Below, piece by piece: positions 20,770 to 21,236 of a stretch of 64,000 bases of DNA; the first letter of the stretch is position 1, and every line of letters starts with the position of its first letter. Origin of the DNA: an uncultured Verrucomicrobiae bacterium. GTDB lineage: Bacteria; Chlamydiota; Chlamydiia; Chlamydiales; Rhabdochlamydiaceae. The stretch spans positions 32,001 to 96,000 of the forward strand of contig CAVSUE010000001.1 of NCBI GenBank assembly GCA_963731265.1, given 5' to 3'. The notes under the pieces were generated by a model that was given only the letters and a program-made list of their open reading frames with translations, was not told the DNA's origin and made no database searches. The position numbers were made by a program, and so were the translations under genes.

Positions 20770-20842
20770 GAGACTTTAGCTCAGTCGGTAGAGCATCTCA
20801 CTTTTAATGAGAGGGTCGATGGTTCGAGTCCATCAAGTCTCA
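20770..20842 (+). tRNA. tRNA-Lys(TTT)
   Basis: Acceptor GAGACTT/AAGTCTC, anticodon arm TCTCA-CTTTTAA-TGAGA, GGTTCGAGTCC. Confidence 0.95.
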
Positions 20843-21236
20843 ATCCCAAAAAAATACCCAGCCAAAGGCTGGGTTTTTTTTTGGGATTGAGACTTGAGTG
20901 AGCCACGGTGTGGCTCATGTATGGACTCGAAGTGAAGCGGCCTTGAGCCGCGAACCGGACGGGCTATCAAGCAATCCCAAAAAAATACCCAGCCAAAGGC
21001 TGGGTTTTTTTTTGGGATTGAGACTTGAGTGAGCCACGGTGTGGCTCATGTATGGACTCGAAGTGAAGCGGCCTTGAGCCGCGAACCGGACGGGCTATCA
21101 AGCAATCCCAAAAAATACCCAGCCAAAGGCTGGGTATTTTTTGGGATTGAGACTTGAGTGAGCCACGGTGTGGCTCATGTATGGACTCGAAGTGAAGCGG
21201 CCTTGAGCCGCGAACCGGACGGACTCCCAAGTCTCA
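20841..21236 (+). repeat. tRNA-Lys-linked tandem repeat, 3 x ~131 bp
   Basis: Near-identical units starting at 20841, 20972 and 21103, each with three hairpins and antisense tRNA segments. Confidence 0.92.

Follow-up and report, generated by a model that had tools for sequence, protein, structure and literature searches.

A tandem array behind tRNA-Lys in a Rhabdochlamydiaceae genome belongs to a family of protein-less modules matched to their local tRNA

Introduction

The 178-bp repeats behind the tyrosine tRNA genes of Escherichia coli (the rtT repeats of tyrT and tyrV) have been known for decades, from papers published between 1978 and 1991, and to our knowledge they are still unexplained. 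They stand in tandem directly behind the tRNA gene and on its strand. At the tyrV locus of strain K-12 (1286700-1287330) there are three 178-nt units, each of which ends in a copy of the tRNA-Tyr tail that begins in the T-loop. Each unit also contains an antisense copy of this tail, with 22-nt arms that are 86% complementary and a 10-nt core that is 100% complementary, and an annotated small RNA, rttR, spans exactly one unit, to the regenerated CCA.

Folded integration sites offer a second point of reference. The integron attC site is an imperfect palindrome with R and L boxes, present once for each ORF cassette, with an IntI integrase and attI nearby, while CTX-type attP sites consist of inverted dif-like sites that fold into a substrate for XerCD and integrate at dif. 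We know of no att remnants with a conserved fold that includes antisense copies of the target, such as the modules described here possess.

Here we analyze an array behind tRNA-Lys in the genome of an uncultured member of the Rhabdochlamydiaceae, within a window of 64,000 nt (C1:32001-96000; the window is the whole stretch of DNA that was analyzed). The array represents an undescribed, lineage-wide family of modules that is real and non-random. These modules resemble the rtT repeats in layout: they are tandem, on the strand of the tRNA and directly behind it, with a tail copy that begins in the T-loop and an antisense arm. The layout is thus of the same kind, antisense arm included, with no sequence in common. 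Unlike rtT, the chlamydial modules have their own invariant junction, three covarying hairpins and matched arms behind 11 isoacceptor types, whereas the E. coli tail includes the CCA and the E. coli repeats occur behind tRNA-Tyr only. We detect no homology between the two, since RF00391 is silent on the chlamydial units, with no match at E <=5 on the window array or at E <=1 on 12 canonical loci. At permissive thresholds, Rfam as a whole returned tRNAs and spurious miRNA-type hairpin matches but no family for the module, and a full-text literature search did not find the chlamydial tRNA-tail family described.

Results

A preliminary description of this DNA had proposed three units of about 131 bp abutting tRNA-Lys, each with a terminator-like hairpin, then antisense copies of the tRNA acceptor strand and of the T-arm with a hairpin between them, and finally another GC hairpin. 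It also held that the inner junctions carry a shortened tRNA end, that the last unit runs out into a copy of the 3' end of the tRNA, and that no integrase is adjacent. Our analysis bears out this anatomy. TRF reported a period of 131 nt in 2.9 copies at 20841-21222 (98% matching, score 743), and a repeat search placed the starts of the copies at 20841, 20972 and 21101. In the scanned region there were 6 terminator-like sites where 1.2 would be expected. A palindrome with 31-nt arms joins the acceptor 3' strand to its inverted copy. The T-arm of tRNA-Lys at 20823-20833 has a counterpart of 100% complementarity in an 11-nt block, ATGGACTCGAA, found at 20921, 21052 and 21181. The further GC hairpin is present in the units, and the string CAAGTCTCA, which forms the end of tRNA-Lys at 20834-20842, is repeated where the array ends. 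The integrase model PF00589 had no match in the window; its three matches in the genome lie at C1:750516, 954818 and 1915732.

To name the parts of the array, we refer to the canonical module, which is a protein-less stretch of about 95-150 nt located directly 3' of the tRNA discriminator base and on the tRNA strand. Its parts follow in the order spacer hairpin (AT-rich or a true terminator), P1 5', hp1, P1b 5', GAA, hp2, CGG, hp3 and the last 17 nt of the tRNA. P1 5' is antisense to the acceptor 3' strand, and P1b 5' to the 3' strand of the T-stem with part of the T-loop. The hairpin hp2 sits in an invariant three-way junction, with G-C, U-A and then tandem G.A / A.G at its base, and hp3 has a short or a long form. 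Since P1 and P1b pair with the tail, the unit closes on a helix that copies both strands of the tRNA acceptor/T-stem stack. Matches were scored with a covariance model, R1, seeded with 21 units. The features of the window array are as follows.

Upstream neighbor of tRNA-Lys(ttt): tRNA-Glu
20770-20842, + strand: tRNA-Lys(ttt), from ARAGORN, Rfam tRNA 75.9 bits, CCA not encoded
20826-20842: last 17 nt of tRNA-Lys, from a T-loop G to the discriminator, the segment copied by modules
20833-20897: long palindrome, 31-nt arms, 97% complementary, made of acceptor 3' strand and trailer, terminator hairpin, and inverted copy
20856-20874: terminator hairpin 1, with A and T tracts on either side, terminator-like on both strands
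20888-20897: P1 5' arm of copy 1 (inverted acceptor strand)
20888-20979, + strand: module copy 1, decayed, R1 46.8 bits, E 1.4e-09, fold z-score -1.7
20899-20917: hp1 of copy 1, a hairpin that recurs in every unit
20921-20931: antisense T-arm of copy 1, 11 nt
20929-20958: invariant junction of copy 1 with hp2, hp3 absent, tail 3 nt short
20972-21028: second trailer/terminator palindrome, with terminator hairpin at 20987-21005, terminator-like on both strands
21019-21110, + strand: module copy 2, 100% identity to copy 1 across the 131-nt period, R1 46.8 bits
21103-21149: third trailer hairpin, 22-nt arms, 100% complementary, T tract interrupted
21147-21236, + strand: module copy 3, R1 52.6 bits, E 4.9e-11
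21189-21218: junction and hp2 of copy 3
21222-21236: regenerated tail of copy 3, decayed, its last 9 nt (21228-21236) equal to the tRNA end; the P1 stem closes here

These copies score 47-53 bits with R1, compared to 100-125 bits for canonical units. All of them lack hp3, and units 1 and 2, whose tails are cut by 3 nt, fold weakly (z-score -1.7). Copy 3 has fold z-scores of -3.5 (+ strand) and -4.3 (- strand), and it is the only unit in the window whose stem closes on the final tail. Given that hp3 and part of the inner tails have been lost, the window copies are probably relics, multiplied by unequal exchange.

The best of the public sequencing runs contains 0.24 of the sampled window words, and in a relative's contigs from public runs 133 other letters take the place of 287 nt of the array, with 20941-21188 uncovered. 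Immediately 3' of the array lies an ORF of 389 aa (21279-22448, + strand) that has no Pfam match. The flank that contains it, with 87% identity, is common to only one other species of the genus, which indicates that the region behind tRNA-Lys is variable. In that species the interior is different and the decayed right junction is the same; since it also carries a module, no empty site for the window's tRNA-Lys was found within the genus. Elsewhere in the window, 2 kb past the array, a 509-aa ORF on the - strand (23231-24760) contains a Cas12f1-like TNB domain (TnpB-type nuclease, IS605/IS607), for which no link to the modules was found. Between frr and tRNA-Glu there is a long AT/GC inverted repeat (20484-20579) with terminator-like features on the minus strand, which draws spurious miRNA-model matches.

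We asked how well the predicted fold holds across the family. The junction, GAAGTGARG ... CGAACCGG, is surrounded by three covarying hairpins, and its letters (GAAGTGARG...CGAACCGGC) are invariant in 21/21 seed sequences from several families. In R1 alignments, which are fitted to the model and so favor the structure, 60 distinct units had 85.4% of paired cells filled, compared to 66.5% in shuffles and 33-46% in slid controls, with both-sided changes in 33 of the 39 pairs. The 63 distinct units among the global-scan matches listed gave 88.0% paired versus 67.2%, with both-sided changes in 34/39 pairs. Pairing reached 85-98% in hp1, hp2, P1b and hp3 and 65% in P1, the lower value being due in part to decayed tails and alignment shifts. 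Minimum free energy (MFE) folds of canonical units independently recovered the predicted shape on either strand, with z-scores of -4 to -7, and together with the slid controls they indicate that the pairing effect is not circular. The module fold covaries, and the family exists. Within this fold, the antisense arms, which the preliminary description saw alternatively as part of an RNA that may pair with tRNA-Lys and regulate or decoy it, are mostly engaged by pairing inside the module.

We counted G.T against A.C pairs on two occasions. The two were balanced in hp1 (10 v 12 in the first count, 7 v 8 in the second) and in P1b (21 v 17, then 14 v 13), while on the tRNA strand of hp2 and hp3 together G.T prevailed (14 v 7, then 22 v 4).

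Variant units occur in two genomes of the same genus, where a hairpin with a GAA loop, directly before the invariant junction, replaces the antisense T-arm block. A GAA-loop hairpin followed by CGAAG is found both in the E. coli unit and in some of the chlamydial variants; the tyrV repeats contain two consecutive GAA-loop mini-hairpins, and the same short string appears in some variant units.

If the arms and tail are copies of the adjacent tRNA, they should agree with that tRNA better than with others, as the preliminary description had implied in speaking of tRNA-specific antisense arms. We compared 50 first units located <=60 nt from a tRNA and belonging to 11 isoacceptor types (Phe 14, Leu-tag 7, Lys 6, Leu-taa 5, Ser-tga 5, Leu-caa 4, Met 3, Thr-cgt 2, Tyr 2, Arg-tct 1 and Leu-gag 1). 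The longest string common to the unit tail and the tRNA end had a median of 16 nt for the cognate tRNA and 4 nt for non-cognate tRNAs, and in 24 of the 50 units the identity to the cognate tail was exactly 17 nt. The inner antisense arm matched over 9 nt cognate versus 5 nt non-cognate, and the outer arm over 5 nt versus 4 nt. A near-identical long hp3 body is found in several genomes, in one of them with Lys arms and in the others with those of Phe. Arms and tail thus match the local tRNA, while bodies are common to modules with different arms.

The preliminary description proposed to look for the same architecture behind other tRNAs, and it was found there. A core-motif pattern (GAAGTGARG, 4-30 nt, GAACCGG) gave 11 matches in the 2.34-Mb genome that contains the window, each on the strand of a tRNA upstream: three at Lys, one at Phe, two at Leu(tag), four at Tyr, and one beside a tRNA-Tyr fragment 4 kb from tRNA-Tyr. 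R1 gave 24 matches and added a tRNA-Ser(tga) locus. The arms follow the local tRNA here too, the Phe unit carrying an antisense Phe T-loop and not that of Lys. In relatives, where the architecture extends to the 11 isoacceptor types, the core motif had 80 matches in 14 of 41 genomes, compared to 5 for a reversed control pattern. Order-wide, it occurred in 26 of 301 sampled genomes, mostly from two families (11/24 and 6/24).

We also scanned one genome per bacterial and archaeal species with a stricter 20-base pattern, which occurred in at least 122 stretches, 80 of which were tested with R1. Among the matches listed, R1 confirmed 48 of the 80 loci, and these 48 came only from entries labeled Chlamydiae, Chlamydiota, Parachlamydiales, Rhabdochlamydiaceae or Simkaniaceae, from MAGs labeled Verrucomicrobia, and from "uncultured bacterium." The 32 R1-negative loci among the matches listed belong to other phyla, and their number is about that expected by chance for a 20-base pattern. 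A same-strand tRNA lay <=200 nt upstream in 33 of the 48 R1-positive loci among the matches listed, the other 15 having no tRNA within the 200-nt flank; no other arrangement occurred. A Pfam match to "Protochlamydia outer membrane protein" in a genome of the same genus agrees with placement in the Chlamydiota.

Dispersed R1 matches in the window's own genome led to a separate element. This is a MITE of 262 bp whose terminal inverted repeats measure 26 bp. About 10 copies, next to unrelated neighbor genes, lie at C1:1577499, 642865(-), 1412736, 1586829, 1203566, 1979355, 490179(-), 1603789 and 1303885, and at C2:125900(-). The interior holds a tRNA-tail-like segment, its antisense arms, hp1 and the hp2 junction, that is, the 5' half of a module as a passenger. 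Guide RNAs of insertion sequences were rejected as an identity for the dispersed matches on these grounds, since they are this MITE with half a module beside unrelated genes.

We next compared sites with and without modules. At tRNA-Phe, one species has an island flank directly behind the tRNA, and another has a 150-nt module, ending in the 17-nt repeat, before the same flank. In one genome a working tRNA-Lys abuts a 65-nt island flank, and at another place in the same genome the identical 65-nt flank stands behind a displaced tRNA-Lys half and two modules. Presence or absence therefore concerns whole modules, delimited exactly by the tail repeat, and array copy number varies. These observations agree with the earlier proposal of a non-autonomous, tRNA-targeting element amplified in tandem: the units have no ORF inside, relatives have arrays of 2-6 identical units, and empty and filled sites differ by exactly one module.

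Many of these sites are also island hot spots. In relatives, modules lie among blocks of 2-10 kb that carry AbiE, HEPN/AbiU2, Schlafen, RhuM, nucleases, kinases and transporters. Each block ends in a tRNA 3' half that begins in the anticodon loop (about 44 nt), and behind this half stands a module array of its own. This identifies the blocks as ordinary islands in a stack at the tRNA, every one of which carries a tRNA half and, behind it, modules. Islands of the same genus also adjoin tRNA-Phe without a module. At the tRNA-Phe and tRNA-Tyr loci of three same-genus genomes, we observed stacked small islands that each open with an anticodon-loop tRNA half, with a defense-type cargo of AbiEi/AbiEii, HEPN AbiU2, Schlafen AlbA_2, RhuM, a YhcG nuclease, a STAND ATPase and an IS607-type resolvase. 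One relative has an island with hp3 and the first 11 nt of the tail at both ends, and an integrase gene about 200 nt after a module, suggesting that some integrases may use the module region. Three integrases that we compared share 32-37% identity. The one non-Xer integrase of the window's own genome adjoins tRNA-Met, where there is no module. The Pam100G island of Protochlamydia is reported to be flanked by 17-bp direct repeats and to lie next to tRNA-Gly genes (PMC548262); in length, these repeats equal the 17-nt tail repeat of the modules.

Several known classes of element were considered and rejected as identities for the modules. Like integron attC and CTX-phage attP, the modules conserve structure while their sequence covaries, have inverted target-like copies that rebuild a duplex site, and carry extra hairpins as bulges. 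Unlike either, they show no apparent IntI-type context and no R/L boxes in the alignments, and they target a tRNA tail rather than attI or dif. An attC cassette was rejected because the modules do not occur once per ORF, the window has no PF00589 integrase and the alignments show no R or L boxes; a CTX-type attP that exploits Xer was rejected on its different target, only the folding logic being alike. Nor is this an integron-like cassette array, because the gene blocks between modules end, as in classical islands, in anticodon-loop tRNA 3' halves and not in modules. Like the CIMEs of tandem accretion, the modules are protein-less, have a tRNA 3' segment directly repeated at their borders, stack up at tRNA genes and alternate with islands. 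A CIME or island att remnant was nevertheless rejected because the module repeat is 17 nt long and starts in the T-loop, whereas the repeats of local islands are about 44 nt and start in the anticodon loop, the one exception being the island bounded by hp3 plus 11 nt. The modules are small, non-coding, hairpin-rich and multi-copy, as are MITEs and REP/BIME elements, but they lack transposase-type terminal inverted repeats and target-site duplications and are strictly tRNA-tail-specific, standing only behind tRNAs or tRNA fragments.

Among RNA and protein-linked candidates, a hammerhead or K-turn junction was set aside because the motif misfits the consensus by eye and no ribozyme model matched. 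An omega RNA of TnpB or IscB was set aside because the modules follow tRNAs and not tnpB, to which the ORFs next to the dispersed copies show no relation either. A retro-element origin was rejected because the window's own genome, at 96% completeness, has no match to the reverse transcriptase model PF00078. Co-occurrence with integrases fails as well, as PF00589 matches in 40 of the 41 relatives, in numbers unrelated to the presence of modules.

Discussion

We consider the modules to be best explained as non-autonomous tRNA-tail elements that are gained, lost and amplified at the DNA level, and possibly also made into tRNA-like RNA, and we give this reading a probability of roughly 55%. The window array would then consist of three copies of a protein-less module, specific to this lineage and about 95-150 nt long, which were amplified in tandem and have decayed. 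A module could be gained or lost by recombination at the 17-nt tail, through a host or island recombinase acting in trans, perhaps on a strand whose folding makes the tail copy available in duplex form. In a single strand, the antisense arms would pair with the tail copy and rebuild the acceptor/T-stem helix of the cognate tRNA, and once two tails are present the array could grow by unequal crossing-over. The balance of G.T and A.C in hp1 and P1b fits a palindrome at the DNA level, and the intrinsic terminators between tRNA-Lys and each unit in the window also count for the DNA-level reading.

Other observations count against it. A PF00589 pattern across the 41 relatives identified no recombinase linked to the modules, and no excised or circular form of the module was seen. 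Integrase-bearing islands at these tRNAs have their crossover in the anticodon loop, with 44-nt identity, and not in the 17-nt tail. The pairs of empty and filled sites could equally have arisen by deletion between tail repeats, and how three separate segments come to be re-matched to a new tRNA is a puzzle for this reading. In addition, the G.T excess of hp2 and hp3 and the invariant junction with its tandem G.A pairs resemble an RNA motif, and the E. coli analogue is annotated as a small RNA that covers exactly one unit.

These last points favor a possible, although clearly less probable, reading in which the module is mainly an rtT-type RNA, whose transcription would accompany or follow that of the tRNA. 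This reading would be compatible with spread at the DNA level. RNase P, RNase Z or exonucleases might release a stable tRNA-like RNA of about 100-150 nt by virtue of its acceptor/T-stem mimicry, and this RNA might act through its three-way junction as a regulator, as a decoy for tRNA-binding proteins or as a sponge. Consistent with such an RNA, the modules always stand in tRNA orientation, their stem reproduces both acceptor/T-stem strands and stops at the discriminator, the junction is invariant in all seeds, the canonical units have strong fold z-scores, and G.T exceeds A.C in hp2 and hp3 on the tRNA strand (22 v 4 in the second count). Moreover, E. coli rttR begins 8 nt past tyrV, and its end coincides with the CCA regenerated in the first repeat. 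However, at the Lys, Leu, Ser and Tyr loci the units stand behind intrinsic terminators or behind strong hairpins that carry T tracts, the G.T excess is absent from hp1 and P1b, both strands fold equally well, and Rfam, RF00391 included, is silent on the chlamydial units.

A broader and rather doubtful proposal is that the chlamydial modules and the E. coli rtT repeats form one unrecognized class of small self-templating elements, which may target the universal segment of tRNA genes from the T-loop to the discriminator. A host enzyme acting in trans would recognize by its structure the acceptor/T-stem helix rebuilt on a single strand from an antisense and a sense copy, and would use it for recombination. 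The distance of 8 bp between hp1 and the three-way junction is that at which the two strand exchanges of a tyrosine recombinase would fall. The same fold would let tRNA-processing enzymes cut out the transcript.

It seems improbable that the modules are att-site debris of tRNA-integrating islands, either attP arms or CIME-like remnants, with no independent life. The debris explanation draws on the location of modules in island hot spots behind tRNA-Phe, Tyr and Lys, among AbiE, HEPN, Schlafen, RhuM and nuclease cargo, on the one island bounded on both sides by hp3 and 11 nt of tail, in a genome where an integrase gene lies about 200 nt after a module, and on the 17-bp repeats reported for Pam100G beside tRNA-Gly (PMC548262). 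Against it, same-genus islands abut a tRNA without a module, island repeats are the 44-nt tRNA halves from the anticodon loop, and the attP flank of one genome's island directly follows the tRNA end with the module absent. Modules also exist far from any integrase, as in this window, and their conserved, covarying fold exceeds what a scar would retain.

Finally, the idea that the array is a functionless by-product of hairpin-templated duplication or of replication slippage at a terminator, or else an assembly artifact, could appeal to a first palindrome centered on a natural terminator, to degenerate inner units with a z-score of -1.7, and to public runs that, containing <=0.24 of the sampled words, lend the copy number no read support, but it is largely refuted by the family-level evidence (in several families and at 11 isoacceptor types, the same body recurs with an invariant junction and with compensatory changes), by control patterns that are almost silent, and by a unit 3 that differs from units 1-2, unlike a collapsed or inflated repeat, and we regard it as very improbable.

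Returning to the DNA-level module as our preferred reading, what had been a single odd repeat becomes a defined family with a covariance model, a fixed junction motif and the rule that the arms and the 17-nt tail copy the local tRNA. Arrays of these modules account for extra "tRNA 3' fragments" and hairpin clusters in island hot spots, and they should not be taken for integration scars or CRISPR-like arrays. If the link to rtT is true, the modules would be a common, overlooked companion of tRNA genes, testable as new mobile DNA or as a new tRNA-like RNA.
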